DNA of 64,000 bases from an uncultured candidatus Porisulfidus sp. (GCA_965116025.1 OZ220480.1:1440001-1504000), one strand, 5' to 3'. Positions 22,313 through 61,698 are shown, counted from the first letter of the stretch. Made by a program: numbers and translations. The notes: generated by a model not told the origin, from the sequence alone.

Positions 22313-25300
22313 ATGAGATATTATCTGACCGCTTCCAATGCCGCTCACACCTCGTCGCACGCCGCCTCGTCGTCTTCCGGCGTAGGGGGGGGGGGGGGGG
22401 GGGGGGCATAGCCCTCGTTTCTTGACCGTTCTGGCCGGCTTCACGGCCTTTCTCTCGCTTCCACTGATCCCGTCCTCCGTCGAAGCGGAGGAGTGCGGCG
22501 ATGTCAGCACCACCAAAACGGTCACCTGCGACGCCGCGACCTACGGCGGCACCAGCGCCACCGATGCCAACCCCATCGAGTACACGGGTCAAACGGGCGG
22601 TCTGACGCTGACCGTGAGGCCTTCCGGGGAGATGACGACCATCAAGTCGTTCCTTCCTCCCGAGAATCCCGCCACCTCTCCCGCTGATCTCACCCAAGGC
22701 CGAAATTCCGGGATCATCGTGATCGGTCGCGGGGCGTTGACGGTCAAGCTGGAAGGCAAGGCGAGGATCGTGAACGAGGCGGGGTGGACGAATACGGCGG
22801 GCACGTACTCTTCTGGTAGCCAACAATACAGCGCGACCTTCATCGAACCCCGGTATCGGCGGGGTAGCAGGAACTACGGGATCGTTGTCGAGAATGACGA
22901 AGCCGGCTTGAGCTCAAGGACGGACAAGATCGAGATCGTGATCGGGGCCGAGGCGCGGATCGGCACTGAGGAGATTCCGGTGGGGCGTTATGGGGTGTTC
23001 GCGTATTACAGAAACGCGTCCGCCGAGGGCGACATGTTGATCGTGAACCGGGGCGAGATTTACGGATATTACCGAGGAATCTACGCGCACCACGAAGGGT
23101 CTGGAGATATCACCGTCGAGACGGCGAAGGGTAGCGTGACCAGTAAGGGGATTTTAGTCAATACGTCCAATAGTGGAGAGGGAGGGGACATCCGCGTCAC
23201 GAACCACGGGACGCTCCAGAGTCCGAGGCAACGACCGCTGTACGCGAAAACGCTCTCGGGCGGAGAGGCCACGCTGTATGATGGTGATATTCCGCTCTAC
23301 AATCAAGATGGCATTCAAGTCCAACACAGGGACGAGACCGAGGGCGCCGCCGATAACCCCAGCAGCACGATCACGATCACCTCGAGCGGAGATATTCGGG
23401 CCCGCAGGTATGGCATCAGCATCGTTACGCGAGGGGACGAGGATTCCGTGGTTCCGGTGACGGTGGACGTGACGGGTGGCGTCATCACGGCGGGCGAGGC
23501 GGACAAGCGGAGAGAGGGGGAATTGGGGAACGGAATTTACGTTCATTCCGATTCCCACAGCGGTGGGCTCATCAAGGTGGATCTCGCGGGCGAGATCGCC
23601 TGGACGGGGATTGAGGGAGACGGGATCTACGTCTACCGGACCAACTCGGCTGATTCCGACGACCCGGCCAATCAGGATGTCGAGGTGACGCTGAAGTCTG
23701 GCGCGCGGATTGGCATGAATGGGGACGAGCCGACCGTGGGCAGGCACGGCGTATGGATCGAGCAGTGGGCTCACGGGGGAACGCTCCGGGTGACCATCTC
23801 CGAGGGGGCGAGGATCGGGACCACGGAGACTCCAGTTGGCGTGCATGGGGTGCTCCTCGAGACCGACCACAGGGATGATGAGAACGACATGATGATCTCC
23901 AACAAAGGCTTGGTTCACGCGAGAAGTTCCGGGCTAGTCGGTTGGAACCATGGTTGGGGAAACGTGGTCGTGGAGCACCTGAAAGGCGAGATCATCGCGG
24001 GCGACGCGCCCAACTTGTTCGAGAATCTAGGGGAAGATGACCAAACGCAGCTGGTGCTGAAGCCCCGGACCGCCGGCATCTTCGCTTTCCATGGAGGCTC
24101 GAAGCTCCAGACGCTTCCCGGCGAGACGTTCGAAGACAACGACCCCTCCACCTACACAGCCGAGGTCGGAGAGATCAAGATCACGTCGAAGGCGGACATC
24201 ACGTCGAAGGGCGACGGCGTTCTCGCCTATGTCAAAGACATTGATGTTCCAAACGATATCGTGTTCATCCCGATCATGATCGACGTTGCGGGCGGGACGA
24301 TCACGGCGGACGGGCATGGGGTTTACGCGGAGACGGCCACTACCTACGAGGACGAGGACGCGCCGAAAGCTGGGAGGATAGAGGTCACGGTGGGGGAGAT
24401 GGCGACGATCCGTGCCAAGAAGGACGGGGTGCATGTCAAGGGCATGCGGACCTTCGCGTCCGACCACGCCCGGAAGGGGCAATACGACCAGACGGTCACC
24501 ATCAACGGCAAGGTGATGGGCGGCGGTGGAGACCACGCCGGCGTTCGGGTGGTGAAGGGCGGGACGCTGGTGATCGGGAGCGGCGGGCCGGAGGCGCGGC
24601 TCGGGGCGGCCTCGGGCGTGGCGGTCCACGCGGACGGGGCTCTGACCATCACGATGAGCAAGACCGCCGACGGGCGCATCGGCTGGGTCGTGGGGAAGAT
24701 CCAGAACGGCGACAGTGGTGACACGACCTTCGCGGGCGTGGAAGTGGGGAAGACGTACCTTCTTCAGGATTGGGAGGAGACGAAGGGGATATACGACACG
24801 ACGATCGAGCGGAAGGTGACCTTGAGGGAATACGCGGACGAGGACTATCACGAGTTCGAGCTGGTGTCTCAAGAGGAGATCGTTCGGGAGTACCATGATC
24901 GGGCTCGGGTGTACGAGGCGCTGCCGTCGGTGCTGCTGGAGATGAGCGCGCCGGGCGGTCGTCAGGCGCGGTTGTCGGCGACGCGGGACGGCGGGGGCGC
25001 GTGGGCGCGGGTTTTGGCGAGCGACGGCGAGCGTGAGGCGGAGACGTCCACGACGGCGATGGACACGGCGGGGCATGATCTGTCTTGGGACTTCGAGCGC
25101 TGGGGCGTGGAGACGGGCTTCGCCGTTCCCACGGACCTGCCAGGCGTGACGCTGGGGGTGAGCGCGCATTATCGAGACGGCGAGGCGGACGTCGAGCGCG
25201 GCGGGAAGATCGAGGTCTCGGGCGTGGGCGTTGGGGCTTCGGCGACCTGGCGTGGTGAGGACGGCTGGTACGCGGACGGGGAGCTCTCGTACACGCGTTT

Positions 25301-25796
25301 CGAGGATGTCGATTTGAGTTCGGAGGCGCGCGGGATGGTGGCGTCCGGTCTGGACGGAGACGGCCACGCGATCGGCGTGGAGGTCGGCAGGCGGCTGGAG
25401 ATGGACGGCTTCGCGCTGGTTCCGCGCGGAGGATTGACGTGGACTTGGGTGGACGTCGATGGCTTCGATGACGTGTCGGGCGTTACGGGTAGCGGTCGGG
25501 TGTCGTTCCGCTCGGAAGACAGCGCGCGGGCGCGGGTTGGAATGTTGCTGGAGAATGGCCAGACGTACGCCTCATTGGACGTGGAGCGTGAGCTGTCGGA
25601 GAGCCGGGAGGTGATGGCGTCGGGGTCGCGCTTGCGCTCGGAGGTGGAGTCTACGTGGGCGCGCGTGGGCGTTGGGGGCGTGATGGTCTTGGATGAGAAG
25701 GGAGAGTCGACGCTCTCGGGGGAGGCGCACTACGCGGCGTCGGACGGCGACAATGAGGATTATGGCGCGAGCGTCCTGCTGAAGGTTCGCTTCTGA
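22313..25796 (+). CDS. Autotransporter paralog 1, frameshifted at the poly-G tract as assembled (putative phase-OFF)
   Basis: ATG 22313 reads MRYYLTASNAAHTSSHAASSSSGV-G7-A-stop with 22 G. With 21 G it joins ORF 22422-25796 to give about 1160 aa. Beta-helix-like passenger and C-terminal barrel ending YGASVLLKVRF. Confidence 0.85.
22385..22406 (+). repeat. Poly-G tract (22 G), out of frame
   Basis: CGTA-G22-CATAGCC, counted directly. Confidence 0.95.
24381..25796 (+). repeat. Near-identical 1416-bp block shared by the three autotransporters (copy 1)
   Basis: Collinear without net indels with 34023-35438 and 60283-61698; 24604-24715 is identical in all three. Confidence 0.93.
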
Positions 25797-25812
25797 TCAG
25801 ACGTGTGATCGC

Positions 25813-25836
25813 GGCCCCGGCGCTCAAGCCGGGGCC
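25813..25836 (+). terminator. GC-rich hairpin 3' of autotransporter 1
   Basis: Stem GGCCCCGGC/GCCGGGGCC with a 6-nt loop; no strong U-tract. Confidence 0.55.
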
Positions 25837-25947
25837 CGCGTGGCGCGGTATCAAAACAGGAAGCATGCGCCGGAAGAATAGAGCGAACGGTGGCGGTTGG
25901 TCAGGAAGCGGCCGATCCGTCCTTGCGGCTCCGCCATGAAGCTCTCC

Positions 25948-28590
25948 TTATTCGCGCGCCGTGGCTCCAAGCCGTTCAATGCGCTCACGCATGGCATTCA
26001 CGATGCGGTGCTGGGCTTTGGGGTCGAGAATAGGGCGGGATTCCATATCGGTGACGGTGAACACATCCCGCGCTTGCGCGCCCAAGGTGGTGATGCGCGC
26101 TCGGGTGATGCGTGCCTGGCACTGGTCCAGGGCTCGGCTGACGGTCCACAGGAGTCCGGGGTGGTCGGAGGCCGAGAGATGGATCCGGGTTTCGGTCGGG
26201 TTCTCGTGGCATGCGAATTCGATCTCGGTTGGGAGATCGAAGTGCCGGGTCCGGCGTTTCGGCCGGCGTAGCACTGGACGGTCGAAGTCTTTCGGCGAGC
26301 GGATCACGCCTCGCAGAGTCTCAAGCAACTCGTCCAGCGCGCGGCGGTTGTGGATCGGCATTCCTTCGGTGTCGGTCACTAGGAAAGTCTGCAAGATGTG
26401 GCGCTCGCGAGTCTCGGTAACGCGCGCGTAGAGCACGTTCAGGCTGAGCCGGGCCAAGGCCGCCGTGATTGAGGCGAACATGGGGGCGTGACTTTCGTCG
26501 TGGATCAGGATCTCCGTGCAGTGGTGCTCGCCCTGGTGGCGCGCGAACGCTTGGGTTGGGATGTCGGGCGCGCGAGTGAGGACGCGCTCGGTCTGCCAGG
26601 CCAAGTCGTCGTCAGTATAGTGCAACAGGTCGCCATCGCGCAGAGAACTCCAGAAGCGAAGGCAGTCGGACTCGGAGCAGACCAAGATCTTTTCCAGTGC
26701 TGAAGTCTTAAGCTCGCGGATTAGCTGGGCCGCGTCGAGCGGCTGGTCAAGGCCTCGCCGCAATTGCCGGTCGGCCGCGTCGTACAGCTGGCGCAGGAGC
26801 GCCTCGCGCCAGGGTGTCCAGAGCGCCGGGTTGGTTCCACGCAAGTCGGCGACGGTCAGCAGGAAAAGGCCGCGCAAACGTATCCCGTTGCCAACCCGTG
26901 CAGCGAACTCGCGCGCTACGTCCGGGTCGCCGATATCGCGCTTTTGCGAGGTCATCGACATCATCAGGTGCCGCTCGACCAGCCAGCGCACCATGCCGGA
27001 GTCGTAGGCGCTCAGGCGGTGTTCGCGGCAGAAATCCTGGGCGAGTGTGCCGCCAATCTCGGAATGGTCTCCACCGCGCCCTTTTCCAATGTCATGAAAC
27101 AGTGCCGCGAGGTACAGCAACTCCGGCTTGGGAAATTGGCGGAACAGTTCATGGTAGAGGGGGTTCTCGCCTTTCCGCGGTGGCTTAGCGAGCCGCCGCA
27201 GCTCGGTCAGCACCTGCAAGGTGTGCTCGTCCACCGGGTGGATGTGGAATAGATCGTATTGCATCATGCCGACTGTCCGTCCGAAATCCGGCCAGTACCG
27301 GGCGAGGACCCCGTAGCGGTGCATGCGCCGAAACTCCCGGGCGATATGCCAGGGTTGGCGCAAGATGTCCAAAAACAGATCCTGGTTGGCGGGGCGGGCG
27401 CGGAAGGCATCGTCGATACGGTGCAGGTTGGCGCGGACCGCTCGAATGACGCGTGCCCGCGCACCTTGGATTTCTGGATGCCGCTGCAGGAGCAGGAACA
27501 GTTCCAGCAACCCTTGAGGGTGGCGCTTGAAGACATCGTCGTCACGGATTTCCAGGTAGCCGTCACGTTCCTGGAAACAGGCGCTCAGGCTTCGTGGCGC
27601 GCGGTGGCTGGGAGGACGCAGGCTTTCGCGGTACTGCTGGATCAGGACCTCGGCGAGACGGTCGACCTCGCTGGTCGAGCGGTAGAAATCCCGCATGAAC
27701 GCCTCGATCATATCGTTGACGGTGTCGCCTCGGTAGCCGAGTCGCTTGGCGACCGTGTGCTGGTAGTCGAATAGCAAACGCTCTTCGGCCTGGCCACTGG
27801 CTTCATGCAGGGCGAAACGCGTCCGCCACAGGAATCGCTTTCCTTCGCGCAACAGATCCAACTCTCGCGGTTCGCAGAATTCCGAGGGACTGGCGATATC
27901 CGGGCGCCGCCGCAAGATCCAGTCGAGGGTCTGGATATCGCGCAATCCACCGGGCCCCTCCTTGATGTTCGGCTCCAACTGGTAGCTGTCGCCGCCAAAT
28001 CGCTGGTGGCGGGTCTTTCGCTCCTCGACCTTGCCTTCGAAGAAGCGCTCCGGAGTCCACAAAGGAGCCTGGAGCAATCCGGTCCGGGGGATCAAGTTGT
28101 CCTCCAGCTCGCGCGCGAGCCGGAGATCCCCGCGCAACGGTCTCACCTCGAGCCAGCTGGTCATCAGCGTGATGTCGGCGCGGGCGTCGTCGCGGCATTG
28201 GCGGACGGTGCGCGCGCTCTGCGAGAGCCTCAGCCCGCTGTCCCACAGAGTCTGGAAGAACGGGCCCAAGGCTCGCGGCGCGGCGCGTCCCCGGTACAGC
28301 GCCAGGATATCAATGTCGGACTGGGGATGCAGCTCACCTCGGCCATAGCCGCCAACCGCGAGCAAGGCGAGGTCGCTTTCCTCGTCCATGCCTCCCGCGC
28401 TCCACAGCGCCCGCAACATCCGGTCGACGAGAGCGGCCCGGGCGCGAACCAGATCGTCGATGTCGCTCTGCAGGAAGCGTCGCGACAGAAATCGCTGGGT
28501 CTTTTCGGACCACCGTTTCCAGCCCGCGGGATTCGCGCCGCGCGGCAAAGGGCATGCGTCAAGGCATGCGCGGATCAGGGAGGAACTCAC
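25948..28590 (-). CDS. glnD: Bifunctional PII uridylyltransferase/uridylyl-removing enzyme
   Basis: AVGGYGRGELHPQSDIDIL NTase motif, EPNIKEGPGGLRD, HD domain LFHDIGKG, two ACT domains. Confidence 0.96.
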   Translation of the reverse strand: MSSSLIRACLDACPLPRGANPAGWKRWSEKTQRFLSRRFLQSDIDDLVRARAALVDRMLRALWSAGGMDEESDLALLAVGGYGRGELHPQSDIDILALYRGRAAPRALGPFFQTLWDSGLRLSQSARTVRQCRDDARADITLMTSWLEVRPLRGDLRLARELEDNLIPRTGLLQAPLWTPERFFEGKVEERKTRHQRFGGDSYQLEPNIKEGPGGLRDIQTLDWILRRRPDIASPSEFCEPRELDLLREGKRFLWRTRFALHEASGQAEERLLFDYQHTVAKRLGYRGDTVNDMIEAFMRDFYRSTSEVDRLAEVLIQQYRESLRPPSHRAPRSLSACFQERDGYLEIRDDDVFKRHPQGLLELFLLLQRHPEIQGARARVIRAVRANLHRIDDAFRARPANQDLFLDILRQPWHIAREFRRMHRYGVLARYWPDFGRTVGMMQYDLFHIHPVDEHTLQVLTELRRLAKPPRKGENPLYHELFRQFPKPELLYLAALFHDIGKGRGGDHSEIGGTLAQDFCREHRLSAYDSGMVRWLVERHLMMSMTSQKRDIGDPDVAREFAARVGNGIRLRGLFLLTVADLRGTNPALWTPWREALLRQLYDAADRQLRRGLDQPLDAAQLIRELKTSALEKILVCSESDCLRFWSSLRDGDLLHYTDDDLAWQTERVLTRAPDIPTQAFARHQGEHHCTEILIHDESHAPMFASITAALARLSLNVLYARVTETRERHILQTFLVTDTEGMPIHNRRALDELLETLRGVIRSPKDFDRPVLRRPKRRTRHFDLPTEIEFACHENPTETRIHLSASDHPGLLWTVSRALDQCQARITRARITTLGAQARDVFTVTDMESRPILDPKAQHRIVNAMRERIERLGATARE

Positions 28591-29357
28591 GAGAATCGTT
28601 CATCGGGACGGGCGGTCAGTACCTCGAAGCCATTCTCGGTGACCAAGACGGTGTGTTCCCACTGGGCCGACAGACTATGGTCGCGGGTCACCACGGTCCA
28701 CCGGTCCGGCAACAGCCTTACTTCCGGTAGTCCGGCGTTGATCATGGGCTCGATAGTGAAGGTCATGCCGGGTTTGAGCATAATTCCAATGCCGGGTTCG
28801 CCGAAGTGCAGCACTTGCGGGTCTTCGTGGAATTCGCGACCGATGCCATGGCCGCAGTACTCGCGCACCACGGAAAGGCCATGACCTTCCGCGAAACTCT
28901 GGATGGCGTGGCCGAGGTCGCCGAGGCGGACGACCGGGCGCACCATGCGGATCGCGCGAAGCATCGCCTCGTAGGTCAAGTCGACCAGCCGCCGCGCCTG
29001 CACCGACGGTTTGCCGAGCAGGAACATGCGGCTGGTGTCTCCATGGTAGCCGTCCTTGATCACGGTAACATCGATATTGAGGATATCGCCGCGCTTGAGC
29101 GCGCGCTCTCCTGGGATGCCGTGGCACACCTGATGGTTGAGCGTGGTGCAGATGGATTTTGGAAAGCCGCGGTAGTTGAGCGGGGCCGGGATCGCGCCTT
29201 GCTTCTCCGTGATGTGGTGGTGGCACAGCTCGTTTAGATGGTCCGTGGTGACTCCGACCTTGACATGCTCGGCGATCATTTCCAGCACTTCCGCGGCGAG
29301 GCGCCCGGCGACCCGCATCTTCTCGATCTCTTCGGGAGTCTTTATGGTGATGGGCAT
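28587..29357 (-). CDS. map: Methionine aminopeptidase type I
   Basis: CHGIP, NIDVT, HGDTS, GHGIG..FHE.P, FTIEPMIN, SAQWEHT. Confidence 0.98.
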   Translation of the reverse strand: MPITIKTPEEIEKMRVAGRLAAEVLEMIAEHVKVGVTTDHLNELCHHHITEKQGAIPAPLNYRGFPKSICTTLNHQVCHGIPGERALKRGDILNIDVTVIKDGYHGDTSRMFLLGKPSVQARRLVDLTYEAMLRAIRMVRPVVRLGDLGHAIQSFAEGHGLSVVREYCGHGIGREFHEDPQVLHFGEPGIGIMLKPGMTFTIEPMINAGLPEVRLLPDRWTVVTRDHSLSAQWEHTVLVTENGFEVLTARPDERFS

Positions 29358-29439
29358 GGGGCGATGGCGTCGGAATGGCTCATTTATGCTTATTATGCGT
29401 CACGCGCTCGCCGATGGCCGAAGTGACCGTCATTTTCGT

Positions 29440-29470
29440 CATCATTTGGTGCATGATTATGATGTCATCA
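29440..29470. promoter_or_regulatory. Palindromic putative operator of the vapBC operon
   Basis: CATCAT...ATGATG inverted pair (29440-29445 and 29459-29464) plus TGATG-T-CATCA (29460-29470), just upstream of the GGAGG RBS. Confidence 0.45.
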
Positions 29471-29486
29471 TGAGTGGAGGCCCGTA

Positions 29487-29682
29487 GTGAGAACGATCCT
29501 GAACATTGACGAGACGCTTTTGGCTCAGGCACGGCTTCTGACCGATATCGAATCGAAGTCGAAGCTGGTTCGCGAGGTGCCGGTCGCGCGCTGGTGGAAC
29601 GGGATAGCGCGCGTCATCTCGCGCGTCTCGACGGTAGTCAGCTAAGTCTACAGGACGTTTCGCTCCGGAGCCTAACCGATGA
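29487..29682 (+). pseudogene. vapB: VapB-family antitoxin, frameshifted
   Basis: GTG 29487 gives MRTILNIDETLLAQARLLTDIESKSKLVRE. The expected continuation LVERDSARHLARLDGSQ is in a different frame. End is approximate. Confidence 0.75.
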
Positions 29683-30023
29683 TTCTGGTTGGCGCGTCCG
29701 TTTAGGTCGAGCGCTTTCGCGGCGGCAACGAGTCTCTGTCGCGCTTGCTTGGCGACGGTCAGGTGGGAATTCATCCTTTCGTGATCGGCGAGATCGCCTG
29801 CGGCGATTTCACGGCGCGTGGGGAGATCCTGTCGATGCTTGAGTGCCTTCCCGCCATGCCCGTGGCGACGCGTTCCGAAGCGTTATTCTTTCTGGAGCGG
29901 AATCATATCGGAGGGAACGGTATCGGCTACGCGGAGAAGGGTTTGCTCAACGAGTGTACGCGTGGGAAGACGGTCGCCTTGGATATCCGGCGAATTTCCG
30001 CCCCCTTTCGCTCGTGCCCTTGA
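29679..30023 (+). pseudogene. vapC: VapC/PIN-domain toxin, inactivated
   Basis: MILVGASV*VERFR...HPFVIGEIACG...GIGY. The usual MILVDTSVW has D replaced by G and W replaced by TAG (29703-29705). Confidence 0.8.
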
Positions 30024-30025
30024 AA

Positions 30026-31273
30026 TCAGGAATTAGCGTTCTCCCTTTTGTGGAATACTACTCTCAAATAGTCCTCTGTCGCATCAAATTCCGGTTCCGT
30101 TCCGTTGCATTCCTTCAAGAGAGGAATGATTTTTTTGCGCACTCCCATCCCGCGCGCGTCGACGTATCCATAATCGCGAAGCACCTCTACAATCAGGCGG
30201 TTGCGCGCCGATCTTTGGCCCGCGATCATCTTCTTGACTGTCATGGAATTCTGCAATGCGCCGGGGCTAATAATTTCGAGCCGATTCGCATAGCGCGCAA
30301 CCTCAATCTCTTCGTTCCGGGTCCAATCTCGGTGGGCCACCGCGTTCACGAGAGCCTCCCGAATCGCCTCTATGGGATAGAGCCAGCGACGTTCGCGACG
30401 CATAGAATCTCCGACTTCCGCGATTTCTTCTGATACGAACGGTCGCATCGCATCGATAAGATTCTCAAGAAGACCTTTTTCCACGACTTTCGCGCCGCCG
30501 CCGGGAAATGGATTTCGTAGGCCGACCAGAGGCCCGTCAAGAGTTTGATCATCAAGAGCGCTGTAGCTTTTATCATCGCCGTCGAACGCCATCCATCGGA
30601 TGCCTCCCTGACGTAAGAACCTTCGTGGGGAATGCCCAAAAAGCATGATGCCGGCGATCGTGCATACTGGAGGCTCGCTCCCCAACTGGCTCATGAAACT
30701 CAGTCCGCAAAGCCGTTCGTGCCATTCCGAATCCCTTTTCGGAACCTCCTTGTCCCCCATTATCGTGAACAGATAGTCCTTCAGCCGATCCTGACTGAGA
30801 TGGGCCAGTCCACTGCCCGATACCGGTAACAACTCTGCGTGTAGCATGCCCCCTAAAGCGTGCAGCCGCGCCTGTTGCTCTCGCGTCGCTGGCCGGGACA
30901 CGCTCCCTATACGGATATAGACATCTTCCCGGCCCCTATCACGCACGACATAAGGCTTGGTCGCGCCCTGGCTCACGGTAATCACCGCGACCCAACCCTG
31001 CTTGTCGACTCGAATCTCCTCATAGAATGGGATGATGGTCGGGTGAACATAGCGACCGAAGACCGTGTCCATTACCCAGCGTTCCAAGTCCTCGCGCTGA
31101 ATGCCGCTAATGGTCCCGTCATCGTCCACGCCAAGCAAAATACGCCCACCCTTAAAATTGGCTAAAGCCACGACCTCCTTGGCAAGTTGCTCGGGACGAA
31201 TATCATCTCGCTTAAATTCCACTCCAGAATTCTCGCCATTCGCTATCAATTCCAATAGATCTACTTTGGTCAT
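30026..31273 (-). CDS. AlbA_2/Schlafen-like domain protein fused to a RecG-C-terminal/HATPase_c_4-like domain
   Basis: GENSGVEFKR, EVVALANFKGGRILLGVDDDG, AIREALVNAVAHRDW, EIISPG, RNRLI, GMGV. Lower GC than flanking core genes. Confidence 0.85.
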   Translation of the reverse strand: MTKVDLLELIANGENSGVEFKRDDIRPEQLAKEVVALANFKGGRILLGVDDDGTISGIQREDLERWVMDTVFGRYVHPTIIPFYEEIRVDKQGWVAVITVSQGATKPYVVRDRGREDVYIRIGSVSRPATREQQARLHALGGMLHAELLPVSGSGLAHLSQDRLKDYLFTIMGDKEVPKRDSEWHERLCGLSFMSQLGSEPPVCTIAGIMLFGHSPRRFLRQGGIRWMAFDGDDKSYSALDDQTLDGPLVGLRNPFPGGGAKVVEKGLLENLIDAMRPFVSEEIAEVGDSMRRERRWLYPIEAIREALVNAVAHRDWTRNEEIEVARYANRLEIISPGALQNSMTVKKMIAGQRSARNRLIVEVLRDYGYVDARGMGVRKKIIPLLKECNGTEPEFDATEDYLRVVFHKRENANS

Positions 31274-31489
31274 TCTTTAAAATGCTGAACGCCGTTTCAA
31301 TTCGTGAGCGTGACGGCATTGTAACCCAGTGAGAGCGGCCAGAACGGTAGGATTGCGAAGAGGATTGGCCGCGTTCCGTCTGAAGAGAGTCAACCTTCCC
31401 CGGACGGAAAATTGCTGCGCCAATGCTTTCCCCCTCGGACTTACAGAAGCCGGGACATCTCTTCCCGCCAGGCGCGAACCATCTCCGAT

Positions 31490-31700
31490 TCCGCTCCGAA
31501 AAAGCCTCGTTCGGCGCGCGCCATCCTAAACAGCACTGAGACTGGTTGCTCAGGCGGTCCTCCACCGCCCGTGCCTCCTCCAGGACCATGTATGGGATGG
31601 TTCGCGCCGTTTCCCTGCTTGGCCTTGAGCGGGCGCAATGGGAGTACGACCAACCCATAGCGAAAGCGGGACGAACCTATGAAGCGGACTCCATATCAAC
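31490..31700 (-). pseudogene. Possible degenerate IS30-family transposase C-terminal remnant
   Basis: EEARAVEDRLSNQSQCCLGWRAPNEAF resembles the IS30 tail (..LNxRPRKxLGxxTPxExF). Upstream similarity is broken by a stop and frameshifts. Boundaries approximate. Confidence 0.5.
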
Positions 31701-31834
31701 TCGCCATCGCCCATCTGCGAGGCGCGGATCTGTCCGAGCATGCGCGAAATCCCGGGCTGGCCAAACATCGTCAAAATCGATTAGCTCGGAAATCGGGGGA
31801 TTCTGGAAACCGAAGTTTGGTCATCTTCGCGCCT

Positions 31835-31843
31835 TGATATAAT
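31835..31843 (+). promoter_or_regulatory. Extended -10 promoter element of autotransporter 2
   Basis: TGATATAAT 34 nt before the ATG. TATAATCCGC is shared with paralog 1 (22268-22277), and paralog 3 has TACAAT at 58145-58150. Confidence 0.6.
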
Positions 31844-31877
31844 CCGCCTTGATCATTCATCGTCGTGAGAGGCTTTC

Positions 31878-34800
31878 ATGAGAGCTACCCTGCATTTTTC
31901 TGATACCGTCCGCGCCGCGCTTCGCGGGGCTTCGTCGTCTTCCCGCGTAGGGGGGGGGGGGGGGGGGGGGCATAGCCTCCGTTTCCTGACCGTTCTGGCC
32001 GGCTTCACGGCCGTTCTCTCCATTCCGCTGATTCCGCATCCCGCCGAGGCGGCGGCCACGGGGAATTGCGGCGCTCTTCCCAGCGGCTCGGGCGCCGCCG
32101 AGGTCACTTGCGACGACCCGACCTACACCAAGGCCGATGGCCCGCCGATCGGGTACGATCTCGCCGCGCCAGGCCGGAGCGTGACGCTGACGGTCAAGCC
32201 TTCCGGGGCGGGCACGGTCACCATCACGTCTAGCGGGATCCCCAGCGGCGCGAGCGACGCTCGGCCGGGGATCGTCCTGAGCGGGCCCGGCGCCCTGAAG
32301 AAAGTCGTTCTCGATGGGCGGGTCCGCATTGAGAGCGGCGCGAGCCGGCGGCTCGTGACGGGGCTGCCCACGACGGTGACGGTCACGCGCATCGGGAAGG
32401 CCATTGATTCGAGGGACCGCGGGGCGGGGCTCAACCACGGCGTCTACGTGAAGCACTTGGGAAGCGACGCCGACGCTCAGAAGGACCGCGCCGAGGTGAT
32501 GGTGGGAGCCGAGGCGAGGATCGGAACCGAAGGCAAGCCGATGGGCGGGTACGGGGTTCTGGCGTACTTCCAGCACGCCACCGATGTCGGCGTGACGAAC
32601 GCGGGCGAGATTTACGGGATGTATGCCGGGATACTGGCGCATCGCTCGGGCGAGGGCGACACCGTGATCAAAACAGCGAAGAATAGCGTGACCTCGCAAG
32701 GGATCCGGGCGTCAGCGGGGAATCTCCAGGACGAGGATCTGCATGAGAACTGGCTTAGGGATGTATGGATAGCCCCGGGCGAGTCCCCTGGAGGCGGTGA
32801 CATCACGATCATCCATGAGGGCAAGATCGTGGTCCAAACCGACCCGCTCCGCTATCTGACCACGACGACCCCGACGGCGTTTAGACACGTGGAAGGTCGA
32901 AGCTCGTATGCGCGCGCCGGGATTCACGTGTTTCACCAGGACAAGAGCGCTCCGGCCGCGGACGGGCAGGCCAGCAGCGAGATCTCGATCACGTCGAGCG
33001 GCGACATCGAGATCGTGACGGATCCAGGCGTCGAGCCACGGTGGGGAACGCGAGGCATTCAAGTCATAACGAAAGGAGACGACGATTCGGTGGTTCCGGT
33101 CACGGTCGACGTGACGGGAGGAAGCATCATGGGAGAGGGAAGAGGAGACGCCCACGCGATCCAGATTCACCATGAGCATAACGGGGGGCTGATCAAGGTG
33201 GATCTGGCGGGCGCGATCACCGGGGCGGGGGGCGTGAGTGGACATGGGGACGGCATTCATGTGTATCGGTACCGACCGACCAAACCGGCGGCCGCCGTGA
33301 AATCCAGCGGCATCGAGGTGACGCTGAGGTCCGGGGCGCGGATCGGCGTGGAGGGAGACGAGCCGACCGTGGGCCGGCATGGCGTGTTCATCCAGCAGCA
33401 AATCTACGGAGGATCGATCCGGGTGGCCGTGTCCGAGGGAGCGAGGATCGGGACCGCGGGGACTCCGGTTGGCGGGCACGGCGTGCTCGCTGATGTCATA
33501 GAAGCTGCTGACGAGGCTGACGTCATGGTCACCAACGAAGGCTTCATTCACGCGAAGGGCTCGGGGGTGGTCGCTGTGCATCGCGGTTCGGGCGACGTGG
33601 TGGCGAAGCACCTGAAGGGCGAGATAATCGCGGGCGACGCGCCCGACATCTTCGACTTGCTAACGGAGGATCACCCGACGCAACTGGCGGACTTGAAGTC
33701 CCGAACCGCCGGCATCCTCGCCGTCCATGGAAGCTCGAGATTCAAAACGCCCGAAGGCGAGACGTTCAATGAAAATGATCCCTCCACCTACACCACCGAG
33801 ACCGGGAAGATCGAGATCGCGTCGAAAGCGGACATCACGTCGAAGGGCGACGGAATTCTCGCCTATGTGAAAGATCTGGACGATACGGGTGATGTGCGAG
33901 CCGGAAAAATGATCATCCCGATCATGATCGATGTTTCAGGCGGGACGATCATGGCGGACGGGCATGGTGTCTACGCGGAGACGGCCACGACCTACGACGA
34001 TCCCACGGAAGCCGGGAAGATCGAGGTCACGGTGGGGGAGATGGCGACGATCCGAGCCAAGAAGGATGGCGTTCACGTCAAGGGGATGCGGACCTTCGCG
34101 TCCGACCACGCCCGGAAGGGACAATACGACCAGACGGTCACCATCAACGGCAAGGTGATGGGCGGCGGTGGAGACTATGTTGGCGTTCGGATGGTGAAGG
34201 GCGGGACGCTGGTGATCGGGAGCGGCGGGCCGGAGGCGCGGCTCAGGGCGGCCTCGGGCGTGGCGGTCCACGCGGACGGGGCTCTGACCATCACGATGAG
34301 CAAGACCGCCGACGGGCGCATCGGCTGGGTCGTGGGGAAGATCCAGAACGGCGACAGCGGCGACACGACCTTCGCGGGCGTGGAAGTGGGGAAGACGTAC
34401 CTTCTTCAGGATTGGGAGGAGACGAAGGGGATATACGACACGACGATCGAGCGGAAGGTGACCTTGAGGGAACGCGCGGACGAGGACTATCACGAGTTCG
34501 AGCTGGTCTCGCAAGAGGAGATCGTTCGGGAGTACCATGATCGGGCTCGGGTGTACGAGGCGCTGCCGTCGGTGCTGCTGGAGATGAGCGCGCCGGGCGG
34601 TCGTCAGGCGCGGTTGTCGGCGACGCGGGACGGCGGTGGCGCGTGGGCGCGGGTTTTGGCGAGCGACGGCGAGCGTGAGGCGGAGACGTCCACGACGGCG
34701 ATGGACACGGCGGGGCATGATCTGTCCTGGGACTTCGAGCGCTGGGGCGTGGAGACGGGCTTCGCCGTTCCCACGGACCTGCCGGGCGTGACGCTGGGGG

Positions 34801-35438
34801 TGAGCGCGCACTACCGTGATGGCGAGGCGGACGTCGAGCGCGGCGGGAAGATCGAGGTCTCGGGCGTGGGCGTCGGGGTATCGGCGACTTGGTGGGGTGA
34901 GGATGGCTGGTACGCGGACGGGGAGTTCTCGTACACGCGTTTCGAGGATGTCGACCTGAGCTCGGAGACTCGGGGGATGGTGGCGTCCGGATTGGACGGA
35001 GAGGGTCACGCGATCGGCGTGGAGGTCGGCAGGCGCATGGAGATGGACGGCTTCGCGCTGGTTCCGCGCGGGGGATTGACGTGGACTTGGGTGGACGTCG
35101 ACGGCTTCGCCGACGTATCGGGCGTTGCTGGGAGCGGTCGGGCGTCGTTCCGCTCGGAGGACAGCGTGAGAGCGCGGGTCGGGGCGCTGCTGGAGAATGG
35201 CCAGACGTACGCGTCTCTGGACGTGGAGCGTGAGTTCTCGGAGAGCCGGGAGGCGATGGCGTCGGGAGCGCGGTTGCGCTCGGAGGTGGAGTCTACGTGG
35301 GCGCGCGTGGGCGTTGGGGGCGTGATGGTCTTGGATGAGAAGGGAGAGTCGACGCTCTCGGGAGAGGCGCACTACGCGGCGTCGGACGGCGACAATCACG
35401 ATTACGGCGCGAGCGTCCTTCTGAAGGTCCGCTTCTGA
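31878..35438 (+). CDS. Autotransporter paralog 2 (in frame, putative phase-ON), 1186 aa
   Basis: Signal peptide with G7 followed by an h-region FLTVLAGFTAVLSIPL and AEA site, N-terminal Cys pair, beta-rich passenger, barrel ending LKVRF. Confidence 0.9.
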   Translation: MRATLHFSDTVRAALRGASSSSRVGGGGGGGHSLRFLTVLAGFTAVLSIPLIPHPAEAAATGNCGALPSGSGAAEVTCDDPTYTKADGPPIGYDLAAPGRSVTLTVKPSGAGTVTITSSGIPSGASDARPGIVLSGPGALKKVVLDGRVRIESGASRRLVTGLPTTVTVTRIGKAIDSRDRGAGLNHGVYVKHLGSDADAQKDRAEVMVGAEARIGTEGKPMGGYGVLAYFQHATDVGVTNAGEIYGMYAGILAHRSGEGDTVIKTAKNSVTSQGIRASAGNLQDEDLHENWLRDVWIAPGESPGGGDITIIHEGKIVVQTDPLRYLTTTTPTAFRHVEGRSSYARAGIHVFHQDKSAPAADGQASSEISITSSGDIEIVTDPGVEPRWGTRGIQVITKGDDDSVVPVTVDVTGGSIMGEGRGDAHAIQIHHEHNGGLIKVDLAGAITGAGGVSGHGDGIHVYRYRPTKPAAAVKSSGIEVTLRSGARIGVEGDEPTVGRHGVFIQQQIYGGSIRVAVSEGARIGTAGTPVGGHGVLADVIEAADEADVMVTNEGFIHAKGSGVVAVHRGSGDVVAKHLKGEIIAGDAPDIFDLLTEDHPTQLADLKSRTAGILAVHGSSRFKTPEGETFNENDPSTYTTETGKIEIASKADITSKGDGILAYVKDLDDTGDVRAGKMIIPIMIDVSGGTIMADGHGVYAETATTYDDPTEAGKIEVTVGEMATIRAKKDGVHVKGMRTFASDHARKGQYDQTVTINGKVMGGGGDYVGVRMVKGGTLVIGSGGPEARLRAASGVAVHADGALTITMSKTADGRIGWVVGKIQNGDSGDTTFAGVEVGKTYLLQDWEETKGIYDTTIERKVTLRERADEDYHEFELVSQEEIVREYHDRARVYEALPSVLLEMSAPGGRQARLSATRDGGGAWARVLASDGEREAETSTTAMDTAGHDLSWDFERWGVETGFAVPTDLPGVTLGVSAHYRDGEADVERGGKIEVSGVGVGVSATWWGEDGWYADGEFSYTRFEDVDLSSETRGMVASGLDGEGHAIGVEVGRRMEMDGFALVPRGGLTWTWVDVDGFADVSGVAGSGRASFRSEDSVRARVGALLENGQTYASLDVEREFSESREAMASGARLRSEVESTWARVGVGGVMVLDEKGESTLSGEAHYAASDGDNHDYGASVLLKVRF
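31950..31970 (+). repeat. Poly-G tract (21 G), in frame
   Basis: CGTA-G21-CATAGCC, counted directly. Confidence 0.95.
34023..35438 (+). repeat. Near-identical 1416-bp autotransporter block (copy 2)
   Basis: Offset +9642 from copy 1 at both ends. Confidence 0.93.
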
Positions 35439-35450: not shown

Positions 35451-35482
35451 CGCGGCCCCGGCGGCGATCAGCCGGGGCCGCG
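35451..35482 (+). terminator. Hairpin 3' of autotransporter 2
   Basis: 12-bp stem CGCGGCCCCGGC/GCCGGGGCCGCG followed by TCTTGTAT. Confidence 0.6.
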
Positions 35483-51422: not shown

Positions 51423-51461
51423 GGGTATGGGAAAGCTCGGGTAGCGCGGAATCGCCCCGAA

Positions 51462-51512
51462 ATTATAGCCCCCGCCCACTTCGCGCGCCCCGAATCCCGG
51501 CTTCGGTACAAT
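51462..51512. promoter_or_regulatory. Divergent -10 boxes for gnnA (minus) and rnhB (plus)
   Basis: TATAAT on the minus strand at 51462-51467 and TACAAT on the plus strand at 51507-51512, in otherwise GC-rich DNA. Confidence 0.5.
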
Positions 51513-51561
51513 GCCCCTCACGCCCCGAGTCTTGATGTTCGCTCCCTTTCCGACCCCGCCG

Positions 51562-55640: not shown

Positions 55641-55657
55641 GGCTCGTTCCCATCGCC

Positions 55658-57873: not shown

Positions 57874-58191
57874 CCGCTCCAGACTCCTACTTGGTGGAAA
57901 TGCCGCGCTGCCGGGATCAGGCCCAGCCAGCACCATCAGTCTCCATCGAATAGATGCGGCCCGGCACTCAAAATCGAGAATCCGAAGATAATCTGGATGA
58001 CGCGCTCGATTTCATGGATATTGGCTTTTCTTATTAACGGAGAATCCTCCTTACAACGAGGAGATTTGCCACCCGTCGCGTGGTTTGGTTCTCCGGTATG
58101 CTTTTCCACGCGCCAGAAGGCTTCGTCGCGATATCCGCCCAGTGTACAATATGAAGCCGTTCGAGACTGATCCTTGAAGCAGAGACAAATA

Positions 58192-61100
58192 ATGACTAAG
58201 AATCCGTATTCGCCAATTTACGAGATCCGCGCCGCGCTTCGCTTCGCGTCGTCGTCCTCCCGCATAGGGGGGGGGGGGGGGGGGGGGCATAGCCTCCGTT
58301 TCCTGACCGTTCTGGCCGGATTCACGGCCGTTCTGTCCATTTCCTTGAATCCTCACTCCGCCGTGGCGGGGACCACGGGAGATTGCGGCGACCCCAGCGA
58401 CGACGCGGTCACCTGCAGCGACGCGAGCTACACCAACGACGACGGCTCCCCGATCAAGTATGAGAATGAGAACGGGGGGCTGACCTTGACCGTGAAGCCT
58501 TCCGGGGCGGGCACGGTCACCATCACCGCCTCGAAGCTTCCTGCCAACGCGCGCGAGGAATTCCCGGGGATCCACCTGGACGGACACGGAACCCTGAAAG
58601 TCGTTCTGGATGGTTCCGTGAAAGTCGTGAACGGAGTGACCCGAACGACGGTGGAGGCCACGTACGAGGGAAAGACGGAGACGTTCATCCATCCGGATCA
58701 CAAGCTGGGCTCCCAGAACGACGGGGTGTACGTGGCGTACGACAAGGACTCCGACCGGGGGACGACGGAGGGCATGGTGGAGGTGATGGTGGGGAAGGAC
58801 GCGATGATCGGGAGCGCGACGGCGCCGGCGGGACGGTTCGGGGTTCACGCGGCTTTTGTGGACGCGGACGGCGACAAAAGGTATCCAGCCGGGAAGATCA
58901 AGGTGACGAGCGCGGGGGAGATATACGGCCATTACGCGGGGATTTACGCGAAGCACGACGGGGCGGGCGATATTGAGATCGAGACGTTGCAGGGGAGCGT
59001 GACGTCGATGGGGATCCAAGCGGTCTCGAACAAGGCCAACAGGAACAATCGGGGCGGAGACGTCACCATTCGTCATCGCGGCCGGATCGTGGTGAAGAAT
59101 CCGGTTCGGTACGCGGACAGGATAACGACGGTGGCCACGCCGTTGAGCGCGGATTTGGCCGATAGCGAAATTCGGAACAAAGCCGGGATCTACGTTCGGC
59201 ATTGGGACAAGGCCACGGGCACGGCCGCGAGCCCAAGCAGCTCGATCCTGGTCGAGTCGAGCGGCGACATCGTCGCCCATCCGTTCGATGACACAGTGAA
59301 CAGAAGGGCTATTTACATCGACGTGGAAGGGGGCGCCAATTCCTTCGTTCCGGTCACGGTCAATGTGACGGGGGGAACGATGACGGCGGCCGACGAGAAT
59401 GGAAAAGGAGGAGATGGCATTATCGTTTACTACCTTAACCATATCGGTGGTCTCATCAAGGTGGACTTCGCGGGCGAGATCGCTCGGACGGGGAGCGGGG
59501 GGGATGGAATCTATATTTATCGGGGCACCGACTATGATGATTCCAGCACCGCCCATAATCGGGACGCCGAGGTGACGCTGAAGTCCGGGGCGCGGATCGG
59601 GATGGAGGGGGACGAGCCGACCGTGGGCCGGCATGGAGTGCTGGTCCAGCAGCAAATCCACGGGGCAGCGACCCGGGTGGCCGTCGAGTCCGGCGCGATG
59701 ATCGGAACCATGGGGACTCCGGTCGGTGGGCACGGGGTGCTCGTCGAGACCTTAGACGATGAAGACGATAACGACGTCATGGTCACCAACGAAGGCTTCA
59801 TCCACGCGAAGGGCTCGGGAGTGGTCGCTGTGCCCCTCGGCCGGAGCGACGTGGTCGTGAAGCACCTGAAGGGCGAGATCATCGCGGGCGACGCGCTTGA
59901 TATCTTCGATTCGCTAGTGGAGAGCAACCAAGTGAAACTGGCGGATCTGAAGTCTCGGACCGCTGGCATCCTCGTCGCCCATGGGGGCGCGGAGGCCCGG
60001 GCGCTTCCCGGCAAGGAACTTGATGAGAGCGATCCTTCCACCTACACCGCCGAGGTCGGGAAGGTCGAGATCACGTCGAAAGCGGACGTCACGTCGAAGG
60101 GGGACGGGATTCTCGCCTACGTGAAAGACCTGGATGGTCCAGGCGTCGCTACGATCATTCCGATCACGATCGACGCGTCGGGCGGGACGATCACGGCGGA
60201 CGGGCATGGCGTGTACGCGGAGACCGCCACCGTCTACGACGATCCCACGGAAGTCGGGGATCCCACGACAGCCGGGAGGATCGAGGTCACGGTGGGGGAG
60301 ATGGCGACGATCCGTGCCAAGAAGGACGGCGTTCACGTCAAGGGCATGCGGACCTTCGCGTCCGACCACGCCCGGAAGGGGCAATACGACCAGACGGTCA
60401 CGATCAACGGCAAGGTCATGGGAGGCGATGGAGACCACGCCGGCGTTCGGATGGTGAAGGGCGGGACGCTGGTGATCGGGAGCGGCGGACCGGAGGCGCG
60501 GCTCGGGGCGGCCTCGGGCGTGGCGGTCCACGCGGACGGGGCTCTGACCATCACGATGAGCAAGACCGCCGACGGGCGCATCGGCTGGGTCGTGGGGAAG
60601 ATCCAGAACGGCGACAGCGCCGACACGACCTTCGCGGGCGTGGAAGTGGGGAAGACGTACCTGCTTCAGGATTGGGAGGAGACGAAGGGGATATACGACA
60701 CGACGATCGAGCGGAAGGTGACCTTGAGGGAATACGCGGACGAGGACTATCACGAGTTCGAGCTGGTCTCGCAGGAGGAGATCGTTCGGGAGTACCATGA
60801 TCGGGCTCGGGTGTACGAGGCGCTGCCGTCGGTGCTGCTGGAGATGAGCGCGCCAGGCGGTCGCCAGGCGCGCTTGTCGGCGACGCGGGACGGCGGGGGC
60901 GCGTGGGCGCGGGTTTTGGCGAGCGATGGCGAGCGTGAGGCGGAGACGTCGACGACGGCGATGGACACGGCCGGGCATGATCTGTCCTGGGACTTCGAGC
61001 GCTGGGGCGTGGAGACGGGCTTGGTCGTTCCCACGGACCTGCCGGGCGTGACGCTGGGCGTGAGCGCGCATTACCGCGACGGCGAGGCGGACGTCGCGCG

Positions 61101-61698
61101 CGGCGGGAAGATCGAGGTCTCGGGCGTGGGCGTCGGGGCATCGGCGACCTGGCGGGGGGAGGACGGCTGGTACGCGGACGGGGAGCTCTCGTACACGCGT
61201 TTCGAGGATGTCGACTTGAGCTCGGAGACTCGGGGGATGGTGGCGTCCGGTCTGGACGGAGAGGGTCACGCGATCGGCGTGGAGGTCGGCAGGCGCATGG
61301 AGATGGACGGCTTCGCGCTGGTTCCGCGCGGGGGATTGACGTGGACCTGGGTGGATATTGACGGCTTCGCCGACGTGTCGGGCATCACTGGGAGCGGTCG
61401 GGTGTCGTTCCGCTCGGAGGACAGCGCGCGGGCGCGGATCGGGGCGTTATTGGAAAACGGCCAGACGTACGCCTCATTGGACGTGGAGCATGAGTTCTCG
61501 GAGAGCCGGGAGGCGATGGCGTCGGGAGCGCGGTTGCGCTCGGAGGTGGAGTCCACGTGGGCGCGATTGGGCGTTGGGGGCGTGATGGTCTTGGATGAGA
61601 AGGGAGAGTCGACGCTCTCGGGGGACGCGCACTACGCGGCGTCGGATGGCGACAATCACGATTACGGCGCGAGCGTCCTGCTGAAGATTCGCTTCTGA
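58192..61698 (+). CDS. Autotransporter paralog 3 (in frame, putative phase-ON), about 1168 aa
   Basis: MTKNPYSP...SSSSRI-G7-HSLRFLTVLAGF signal peptide, N-terminal Cys pair, passenger, barrel ending LKIRF. Confidence 0.9.
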   Translation: MTKNPYSPIYEIRAALRFASSSSRIGGGGGGGHSLRFLTVLAGFTAVLSISLNPHSAVAGTTGDCGDPSDDAVTCSDASYTNDDGSPIKYENENGGLTLTVKPSGAGTVTITASKLPANAREEFPGIHLDGHGTLKVVLDGSVKVVNGVTRTTVEATYEGKTETFIHPDHKLGSQNDGVYVAYDKDSDRGTTEGMVEVMVGKDAMIGSATAPAGRFGVHAAFVDADGDKRYPAGKIKVTSAGEIYGHYAGIYAKHDGAGDIEIETLQGSVTSMGIQAVSNKANRNNRGGDVTIRHRGRIVVKNPVRYADRITTVATPLSADLADSEIRNKAGIYVRHWDKATGTAASPSSSILVESSGDIVAHPFDDTVNRRAIYIDVEGGANSFVPVTVNVTGGTMTAADENGKGGDGIIVYYLNHIGGLIKVDFAGEIARTGSGGDGIYIYRGTDYDDSSTAHNRDAEVTLKSGARIGMEGDEPTVGRHGVLVQQQIHGAATRVAVESGAMIGTMGTPVGGHGVLVETLDDEDDNDVMVTNEGFIHAKGSGVVAVPLGRSDVVVKHLKGEIIAGDALDIFDSLVESNQVKLADLKSRTAGILVAHGGAEARALPGKELDESDPSTYTAEVGKVEITSKADVTSKGDGILAYVKDLDGPGVATIIPITIDASGGTITADGHGVYAETATVYDDPTEVGDPTTAGRIEVTVGEMATIRAKKDGVHVKGMRTFASDHARKGQYDQTVTINGKVMGGDGDHAGVRMVKGGTLVIGSGGPEARLGAASGVAVHADGALTITMSKTADGRIGWVVGKIQNGDSADTTFAGVEVGKTYLLQDWEETKGIYDTTIERKVTLREYADEDYHEFELVSQEEIVREYHDRARVYEALPSVLLEMSAPGGRQARLSATRDGGGAWARVLASDGEREAETSTTAMDTAGHDLSWDFERWGVETGLVVPTDLPGVTLGVSAHYRDGEADVARGGKIEVSGVGVGASATWRGEDGWYADGELSYTRFEDVDLSSETRGMVASGLDGEGHAIGVEVGRRMEMDGFALVPRGGLTWTWVDIDGFADVSGITGSGRVSFRSEDSARARIGALLENGQTYASLDVEHEFSESREAMASGARLRSEVESTWARLGVGGVMVLDEKGESTLSGDAHYAASDGDNHDYGASVLLKIRF
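58267..58287 (+). repeat. Poly-G tract (21 G), in frame
   Basis: CATA-G21-CATAGCC, counted directly. Confidence 0.95.
60283..61698 (+). repeat. Near-identical 1416-bp autotransporter block (copy 3)
   Basis: Offset +35902 from copy 1 at both ends. Confidence 0.93.

Follow-up and report, generated by a model that had tools for sequence, protein, structure and literature searches.

A family of autotransporter genes with long poly-G tracts, probably phase-variable, in an uncultured candidatus Porisulfidus sp.

We examined a stretch of 64,000 nucleotides (hereafter the window) from an uncultured candidatus Porisulfidus sp. (GCA_965116025.1, OZ220480.1:1440001-1504000), one strand read 5' to 3'. 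Between positions 22,313 and 61,698, counted from the first nucleotide of the window, lie three paralogous genes (genes 1, 2 and 3) that encode autotransporters, and each carries a run of 21 or 22 guanosines near its 5' end (Table 1). These are the three runs returned by a search of the window for 15 consecutive G's. No run of that length occurs in 100 dinucleotide-preserving shuffles of the window, and the chance expectation for G15 is 0. The genes belong to a family with 24 tract-bearing copies in this genome, which we interpret as a probable set of ON/OFF phase-variable surface proteins.

The three genes share one design. Each opens with an ATG that lies 72–75 nt 5' of the G run, followed by a leader of 24–25 residues whose C-terminal end is SSSSGV, SSSSRV or SSSSRI. 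Directly 3' of the tract is the sequence HS[PL]RFLTVLAGFTA and then a segment resembling a signal peptide, which ends in AEA, VEA or AVA. On visual inspection, a basic n-region (HSLR), a hydrophobic core (FLTVLAGFTAVLSIPLI) and the AEA/VEA/AVA site can be distinguished here. Two cysteines follow, C64 and C78 in gene 2, which are invariant across a 12-sequence alignment. TATAAT or TACAAT hexamers are located 40–47 nt 5' of the ATGs, and GC-rich hairpins with stems of 9–12 bp lie 13–17 nt past each stop codon. The hairpin of gene 1 is not called by a terminator scan because it lacks a T-run. In a sliding comparison, DNA identity among the three genes is 81–89% in the approximately 100 nt surrounding the tract, 30–65% over the first 1.6 kb or so of the passenger, 66–88% in the remaining passenger, and mostly 90–99% over the final 1.35 kb or so, where one 100-nt bin is at 82–85%. 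The last bin, which extends beyond the stop codon, is at 73–76%.

Genes 2 and 3, both with G21, translate through the tract in frame. Gene 1, with G22, is out of frame, and the reading from its ATG ends in GGGGGGGA at the TAG at 22410-22412. In the assembly consensus gene 1 is OFF and genes 2 and 3 are ON. The context ...RTA-G(n)-CATAGCC... is conserved, and because of it both wrong frames stop at once, one at GCA-TAG and the other at a TGA, 1 and 6 codons past the tract respectively. A preliminary description of the window had proposed a three-paralog cassette consisting of a -10 box, ATG, SSSS-x-[VI], G21/22, HS[LP]RFLTVLAGFTA, a cysteine pair, a divergent passenger, a near-identical 1.4-kb 3' block and a hairpin, and had held that a change of 1–2 nt abolishes the product. 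We recovered all of these elements in all three genes, and the position of the stops agrees with the predicted loss of product. The ON/OFF design it put forward is also supported, but it had missed that gene 1 is OFF at G22.

The only family reported for the three proteins in a Pfam scan (E up to 0.01) is PF03797, the autotransporter beta-domain, with E-values of 7e-25 to 6e-26, and all three score 80–82 bits against TIGR01414 (cut-off 16). We modelled the gene 2 protein with AlphaFold (AF2) from a 27-sequence alignment of the family, with a mean predicted local distance difference test (pLDDT) score of 70 and a predicted template modelling (pTM) score of 0.65. The first 60 residues of the model are unstructured, the passenger (residues 73–886) is almost all-beta, and a helix at 888–904 directly precedes the barrel. 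The best matches of the barrel in the PDB, found with Foldseek, are the translocators of BrkA, Hbp, EspP, NalP and AIDA-I (E 2e-5 to 6e-3). The three window genes encode classical (type Va) autotransporters with a 12-strand barrel, preceded in the gene 2 model by a linker helix.

The passenger has no confident structural match with Foldseek and no Pfam match, and Pmp repeats, pertactin and peptidase S6 (SPATE) passenger domains are not matched in Pfam or NCBIfam. A search of 1.84 billion proteins with residues 60–740 (681 aa) yields only 10 cluster representatives at an E-value of 1e-3 or below, and three of the five best matches are clusters from the same genome. With the N-terminal 500 residues, a search of 5.8 billion proteins returns 24 that belong to this genome and two others; a search of shorter proteins gave none. 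On these searches the passenger appears to be nearly an orphan. In the Pfam scan (E ≤ 0.01) the N-terminal extension does not match ESPR (PF13018); although the leader of 24 residues forms an extension, its sequence type differs from ESPR.

The genome is a single contig of 2,018,984 bp with 62.7% GC. Runs of G or C within it are bimodal in length, with 71 of 7–8 nt, none of 9–14 nt and 45 of 15–39 nt, giving a density of 22 long tracts per Mb. The hard gap at 9–14 nt followed by a minimum of 15 could reflect an expansion bias, selection for very rapid switching even with mutS and mutL intact, or a minimum for G-quadruplex formation. More than half of the long runs (24 of 45) share one codon position in paralogous autotransporter genes and invariably have G on the sense strand. 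They measure 16, 17 (three copies), 19, 20, 21 (two), 22 (four), 23 (eight), 24, 25, 26 and 27 nt, with a mode of 23. PhasomeIt counts poly-G/C tracts from 9 nt, a length exceeded by the window tracts (G21–G22) and by the whole family (16–27). These 24 paralogs were recovered by a genome search with the tract motif and the 3' block, a check that the preliminary description had suggested. The C-terminal 386 residues used as a tblastn query find 26 blocks, namely the 24 with a tract, one full copy without a tract and one fragment of 123 aa. The tractless copy (genome 510720-508080, minus strand, 880 aa) contains leader and signal peptide without a homopolymer, and may be constitutive or of an ancestral type. 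Read from the conserved leader, four of the 24 copies are in frame and 20 are out of frame. The in-frame copies are the two window genes (genome 1471950 and 1498267), a copy at 1062605 (G24) and a copy at 1586276 (A+G17). Four is somewhat under one third of the family (binomial P for four or fewer of 24 = 0.059).

Conserved expression signals lie upstream of the tract. The hexamer TAnAAT is found 39–62 nt 5' of the leader ATG in 23 of the 24 copies (0.02 expected per 105 positions), and a motif resembling a Shine-Dalgarno (SD) sequence occurs at -8 to -17 of the ATG in 21. Downstream of the tract, ATG, GTG or TTG in frame is absent from the first 35 codons in seven copies and scattered in the others. 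The preliminary description had named translation from a start downstream of the tract as the observation that would speak against it; among the 24 copies we identified no conserved start codon 3' of the tract, and such a start is rejected for lack of conservation. The tract is placed between a conserved ATG, with its SD and -10 motifs, and the only long open reading frame (ORF). Two other starts were considered. A second ATG 47 nt 5' of the tract in four copies, including gene 1, is in another frame and is rejected because that frame reads TA+G = TAG at the first base of the tract; the ORF listing shows none. A long alternative upstream ORF in a database gene call (P0008, the copy at 1011129) is probably an artefact because its start precedes the conserved -10 box.

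The copies are intact whatever their frame. Past the tract, the reading frame is open for at least 889 codons in all 24 copies and for at least 1036 in 22 of them. The 20 out-of-frame copies have open frames of 889–1166 codons, and none contains a second lesion. Over all 276 pairs, median ratios of nonsynonymous to synonymous substitution rates (dN/dS; Nei-Gojobori method, NG86) are 0.59 for the N-terminal part of the passenger, 0.48 for its middle part and 0.33 for the C-terminal block. Over the 190 pairs in which both copies are OFF the corresponding values are 0.58, 0.48 and 0.32. The out-of-frame copies are therefore intact and under purifying selection, as reversible switching predicts and unlike what is expected from decay. 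An alternative is that most of the family is dead, with 20 out-of-frame pseudogenes left by a duplication burst and broken at the tract. The number of such copies favours it, and there is a precedent in Campylobacter capC, whose inactivation has been ascribed to gene decay and not to poly-G switching (PMC7168839). However, pseudogenes would hardly be expected to lack a second lesion in every case, to show the same dN/dS among themselves as all pairs do and to keep promoter and SD motifs in nearly every copy, and we regard this explanation as extremely improbable.

Tract length varies between close paralogs, at a pace above that of the flanking sequence. In the six pairs with the most similar 120-nt flanks (4–8 mismatches), the two tract lengths differ in every case, by 1–6 nt. 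Three public sequencing runs of one study, of DNA or unspecified type, contain window DNA, as Logan contigs placed on window positions 20500-33300; an RNA run with this DNA was not listed. One contig of run X1 (record 2) terminates 20 G's into tract 1, and one of run X2 (record 10) 22 G's in, which confirms a long run at this tract. Run X2 shows scattered single-nucleotide differences and seems to represent a slightly different strain, and run X3 contains only short pieces resembling the paralogs. Among metagenome contigs, the exact DNA pattern of the 5' module had no match, and none of the 26 stretches found by a protein-alignment scan was confirmed.

Outside the autotransporter family there are 21 further long runs, many of them in or before surface genes or restriction and defence genes. 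Six belong to genes for fn3-rich proteins of 9613, 2287, 2162, 1541, 1238 and 1226 aa; the two smallest of these proteins also have an autotransporter barrel. In these genes a sense-strand poly-C of 18–29 nt is followed by ...GGGAEAV... and a segment resembling a signal peptide; four of the six are ON, judged by an in-frame ATG upstream of the tract. Genes for a Type ISP restriction-modification enzyme, a GmrSD restriction enzyme, a DUF499 protein, a PAPS-reductase-like (DndC-like) protein and a GHKL-ATPase-like protein also carry tracts, and we consider them candidate phase-variable defence genes. A gene for an RTX protein likewise carries a long G/C run. In Neisseria, phase-variable sets usually consist of surface proteins and restriction systems (PMC5953494), and the tract-bearing genes of this genome appear to resemble such a typical set. 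We also observed two paralogous ORFs at genome positions 89981-90919 and 96973-97971 (minus strand, 312 and 332 aa) that have C30 and C39 runs (plus strand) near their 3' ends, with a G16 run at genome position 96733 between them.

Table 1. Coordinates of the three window genes and of tracts in other gene groups. Positions are those of the window unless marked as genome positions or residues.
Feature	Position	Strand	Remarks
Gene 1 -10-like hexamer TATAAT	22268..22273	+	45 nt 5' of ATG
Gene 1 leader (MRYYLTASNAAHTSSHAASSSSGV)	22313..22384	+	leader ATG at 22313
Gene 1 poly-G, G22, OFF	22385..22406	+	
Gene 1 signal peptide, passenger and beta-barrel	22407..25796	+	1129-codon open frame after the tract (P0003); PF03797 E 5.6e-26
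Gene 1 GC-rich hairpin	25813..25836	+	9-bp stem, 3' of stop
Gene 2 -10 hexamer TATAAT	31838..31843	+	preceded by TGA (extended -10-like)
Gene 2 autotransporter	31878..35438	+	complete and in frame, 1186 aa (P0001); leader ATG at 31878; PF03797 at residues 923-1154
Gene 2 protein, N-terminal part			leader 1-24, poly-Gly 25-31, signal peptide ~32-58, Cys64 and Cys78
Gene 2 protein, remainder			beta-rich passenger, linker helix 888-904, barrel up to residue 1186
Gene 2 poly-G, G21, ON	31950..31970	+	
Gene 2 3' block	34091..35438	+	mostly 90-99% identity to 24449..25796 (gene 1) and 60351..61698 (gene 3)
Gene 2 GC hairpin	35451..35482	+	12 bp, terminator-like
Gene 3 -10-like hexamer TACAAT	58145..58150	+	
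Gene 3 autotransporter	58192..61698	+	complete and in frame, 1168 aa (P0002); leader ATG at 58192; PF03797 E 1.4e-25
Gene 3 poly-G, G21, ON	58267..58287	+	
Gene 3 GC-rich hairpin	61713..61737	+	9-bp stem, 3' of stop
Tracts of the fn3 genes (genome positions)	137569, 385736, 1154002, 1747365, 1839275, 1986077		
Tracts of the defence-type genes (genome positions)	11481 (Type ISP), 666483 (GHKL-ATPase-like), 772596 (GmrSD), 968262 (PAPS-reductase, DndC-like), 1683699 (DUF499)		

The tracts could also be stable poly-glycine linkers whose lengths have been called wrongly, in which case every copy would in truth be in frame and expressed constitutively. All sequencing platforms make errors in long homopolymers, database lengths of G-tracts can depart from the real population (PMC9187656), and the modal length of 23 is one base below the in-frame length of 24. 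However, with lengths of 16 to 27 there is no one offset that would convert them all to multiples of three; a uniform addition of one base would turn off the four copies that are now in frame. Furthermore, five to nine glycines are not a requirement of a cleaved leader; they are absent from one paralog and from two homologs in other genomes, and similar runs precede unrelated genes, including those for restriction enzymes, where a poly-glycine linker would make no sense. We consider this explanation very unlikely.

Another possibility is that the tract acts as a leaky attenuator, in which slippage of the polymerase or the ribosome yields some product at any tract length and the tract sets a low level of expression, possibly by means of an RNA G-quadruplex. 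In-frame lengths are not enriched (4/24, mode 23), each copy is conserved as though all were in use, and all tracts are at least 15 nt long, as this model would allow. A three-tetrad G-quadruplex with 1-nt loops requires, by simple arithmetic, at least 15 nt. RNA polymerase, however, slips much less on G/C runs than on A/T runs, and in the six fn3 genes the sense strand carries poly-C, so that an mRNA G-quadruplex cannot be the general principle. Transcriptional slippage on long A/T homopolymers is established in bacteria (PMC1088944), whereas the expression associated with G-tracts of Bifidobacterium breve pilus genes is attributed by its authors to replication slippage measured on DNA (PMC9187656). 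Attenuation is moreover compatible with switching at the DNA level. As a replacement for phase variation it seems to us unlikely.

The family is mosaic. There is no correlation between nucleotide identity in the N-terminal passenger and that in the C-terminal block (Spearman 0.03, P = 0.57, 276 pairs). The C blocks form three clusters above 92% identity, of 9, 4 and 6 copies, with all three window genes in the six-copy type, and the N-terminal passengers form five clusters that cut across these. Three of the four in-frame copies (1471950, 1498267 and 1586276) share one 3' block type, which is found in 6 of the 24 copies (hypergeometric P = 0.035, which may be chance). A protein from another genome (P0009, on a 3.0-Mb ENA contig) is 73–88% identical to some passengers of this genome and only 45–50% identical in the barrel; barrels therefore appear to be homogenised within a genome, while passenger types appear older or exchanged. 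The pattern suggests either passenger exchange between genomes or old passenger alleles on barrels homogenised by genome.

This mosaicism raises the possibility that the G runs serve mainly in recombination, with a G-quadruplex in the displaced strand initiating gene conversion between paralogs and the 5' module and 3' block acting as homology arms. The G-quadruplex of Neisseria pilE initiates gene conversion, and in the present family a variable core lies between conserved modules. In addition, 22 of the 24 genes run in the direction of replication and have their G tract on the lagging-strand template (cumulative GC skew is lowest at ~0.70 Mb and highest at ~1.70 Mb). However, homologous recombination between repeats is sufficient for mosaicism, the orientation bias may merely reflect co-direction with replication, and tracts also occur at single-copy genes that have no recombination partner. 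The proposal also makes no use of the tract's place within the reading frame, where its length decides translation. The probability of this account is, in our judgement, very low.

The DNA motif of the family was found in none of 40 relatives. Of the 15 other genomes of the genus, 6 contain one or two distant autotransporters each, with 33–37% identity in the C-terminal part; the 25 genomes from the remainder of the order contain none. Runs of at least 14 G's are present in 13 of the 15 genus genomes and 9 of 12 from a sister family, and in none of 12 from a family with genomes of ~1 Mb. The family described here was itself not recovered from these genomes. Long tracts thus look like a habit of the lineage that is exercised on different genes. 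In P0009 and P0010, both from other genomes, glycine runs of 7 and 8 occupy the equivalent place. Homologs in a Ca. Poriferihabitaceae metagenome-assembled genome (MAG) and in another gammaproteobacterial MAG possess leader and signal peptide but lack the run, and for this reason the tract looks like an addition to an older design.

A Paracoccaceae MAG (OZ220486.1), an alphaproteobacterium, contains at least 21 related loci (L034-L055). An ATG leader, a G9–G14 run (C19 in one case) and a signal peptide are present at 18 of the 21, with an open frame of at least 894 codons after the run. Among six paralogs with the same or nearly the same leader, G9 and G12 are in frame and G10, G10, G11 and G11 are out. 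Two loci (L047 and L048) have the run with only a short open frame after it. The likeness to the present family lies in the order of leader, poly-G and signal peptide and in 34–43% identity from mid-passenger to barrel, whereas the host lineage, the shorter runs and an unrelated leader (MGYSEQSGY...) set it apart. Within the literature searched, this family is apparently undescribed. Related records carry names of sponge-associated lineages.

The window genes are single insertions in housekeeping surroundings. Gene 1 lies between dapD and glnD-map, gene 2 between a Schlafen/AlbA_2 gene and tsf, and gene 3 between dnaE-accA-tilS and pyrG. In sister species the dapD-glnD slot (window 22186-25947) is about 80 nt long and empty in 7 of 15, and holds other DNA in the remaining eight. 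One of these species (G013) has C20 and C14 runs in the slot, and another (G004) has a gene with the order ATG, C11 and signal peptide that encodes 1800 aa. The Schlafen/AlbA_2 gene (window 30026-31273, minus strand) encodes a protein of 415 aa that also contains HATPase_c_4, and stands between map and gene 2 in an otherwise housekeeping block.

Switching of surface genes by simple repeats is well documented in other bacteria. In Neisseria pilC, the poly-G lies within the region coding for the signal peptide. Neisseria poly-G tracts of at least 9 are counted as phase-variable, mutability rises with length, each genome has 15–19 poly-G repeats, and nalP carries a genic C9–13 tract (PMC5953494). 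As in nalP and pilC, the homopolymer described here lies in the 5' coding region of a gene for a surface or secreted protein, would set ON or OFF by frame, and recurs at many loci. Unlike Neisseria, where the modal tract is 9–10, the minimum here is 15 and the family mode 23, and a single family of 24 paralogs carries the same putative switch, in a high-GC uncultured symbiont as opposed to a human pathogen or commensal. There is no sequence relationship beyond the barrel fold.

Campylobacter capD is also an autotransporter gene with a coding poly-G, whose position is kept across the genus with tracts from G4 to G10 or longer (PMC7168839); one or a few such genes are described per genome, in contrast to 24 intact copies here with far longer tracts, all in the signal peptide. 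The pmpG family of Chlamydia resembles the present one as an expanded paralogous family of autotransporter-type surface proteins, and in-frame poly-G in some of its members has led to the suggestion of independent on/off switching (PMC4488443). Its tracts are 8–9 nt and are confined to a subset of genes, however, and the proteins described here have no detected Pmp-type repeats, with PF03797 alone found in Pfam. In the pilin genes of B. breve UCC2003, replication slippage has been measured on DNA by barcoded deep sequencing (PMC9187656). There too, in a non-pathogenic host associate of high GC content, a G-tract divides the Sec signal from the body of a surface protein, but the pilin is Gram-positive and sortase-dependent with G10–12 at two loci, whereas the present system comprises 45 loci known from sequence. 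In Helicobacter pylori, 5' repeats set the frame of the outer-membrane protein genes oipA and relatives (PMC10564699); these are CT dinucleotide repeats, unlike the homopolymer here. A search of the literature on phase variation in sponges and symbionts, homopolymeric tracts and autotransporters returned no description of this family.

Slipped-strand ON/OFF phase variation is the best explanation of the tract family and, in our judgement, a probable one. Translation would start at the ATG 72–75 nt 5' of the run of 21–22 G's, which would be read as poly-glycine inside an N-terminally extended signal peptide. Because this extended signal peptide is proposed to be removed on export, the mature protein would be independent of the number of glycines. 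During replication the run would gain or lose G's by slipped-strand mispairing. Lengths that keep the frame would yield the full protein, which would be exported by Sec and whose passenger, perhaps adhesin-like in role, would be displayed through its own 12-strand barrel, whereas the two other length classes would meet a stop 1 or 6 codons past the tract and give no product. Given the same switch in 24 paralogs together with the further tracts, the cells of a clonal population would differ in the subset of surface proteins that they carry. Recombination between paralogs would shuffle passenger types against the three homogenised types of 3' barrel and so add diversity beyond ON and OFF. The reading of the window genes as phase-variable autotransporters in the preliminary description is supported by the intact OFF copies, the upstream starts and the presence of other tracts in surface and restriction genes. 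The mechanism itself is known. What is apparently new is the much greater length of the tracts, the switching of a whole 24-copy mosaic family in the same manner, and the organism.

Several observations weigh against slippage as the explanation. The ON fraction of 4/24 is weak evidence that fits OFF-biased switching and an absence of selection on frame alike, and like the individual ON and OFF calls it is provisional because assembled homopolymers of 20 nt or more can err by one base. The public data give no direct evidence of length heterogeneity, as in each of the three runs the Logan contigs stop on reaching the tracts; such ends are also expected because the paralogs share flanking 31-mers and Illumina reads degrade in G runs. 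No second assembly of the species was found in metagenome or protein collections. A consensus scan called no complete sigma-70 (-35/-10) promoter upstream of the three window genes, and a terminator-like element was called after gene 2 and not after genes 1 and 3. By this measure the transcription signals are plausible, not strong. The OFF state may be leaky through slippage in transcription or translation on runs of this length. Finally, mutS and mutL are intact in the genome, and high slippage rates would consequently have to follow from tract length alone. To our knowledge H. pylori lacks MutS/MutL-type mismatch repair, unlike the genome described here, which has both genes.

Phase-variable surface proteins are textbook knowledge for a few host-adapted pathogens and commensals of vertebrates; here they would occur at high density in a small genome proficient in mismatch repair. 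Strong, fluctuating selection appears to act on the outer surface of this bacterium, exerted by host cells or phages. The biology of sponge symbionts mostly frames such pressure in terms of eukaryote-like proteins and defence systems, and the 24 autotransporters, the six fn3 giants and several restriction systems are candidate genes at the interface with host or phage. Families of this kind are under-reported because gene callers truncate or split the genes and short-read assemblies break at the tracts. A tentative wider suggestion, which we entertain seriously without leaning towards it, is that sponge bacteria of at least two proteobacterial classes have repeatedly built a module of start codon, long G/C homopolymer and export signal before expanded, recombining surface families. 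If so, the present genome would be an extreme case, with 45 tracts of 15–39 nt and 24 autotransporters allowing ~17 million ON/OFF combinations. Hypervariable coats would then be a general need for persistence in a filter-feeding, phage-rich host that feeds on bacteria, and the contingency-locus strategy of human pathogens would extend to mutualistic marine symbiosis.

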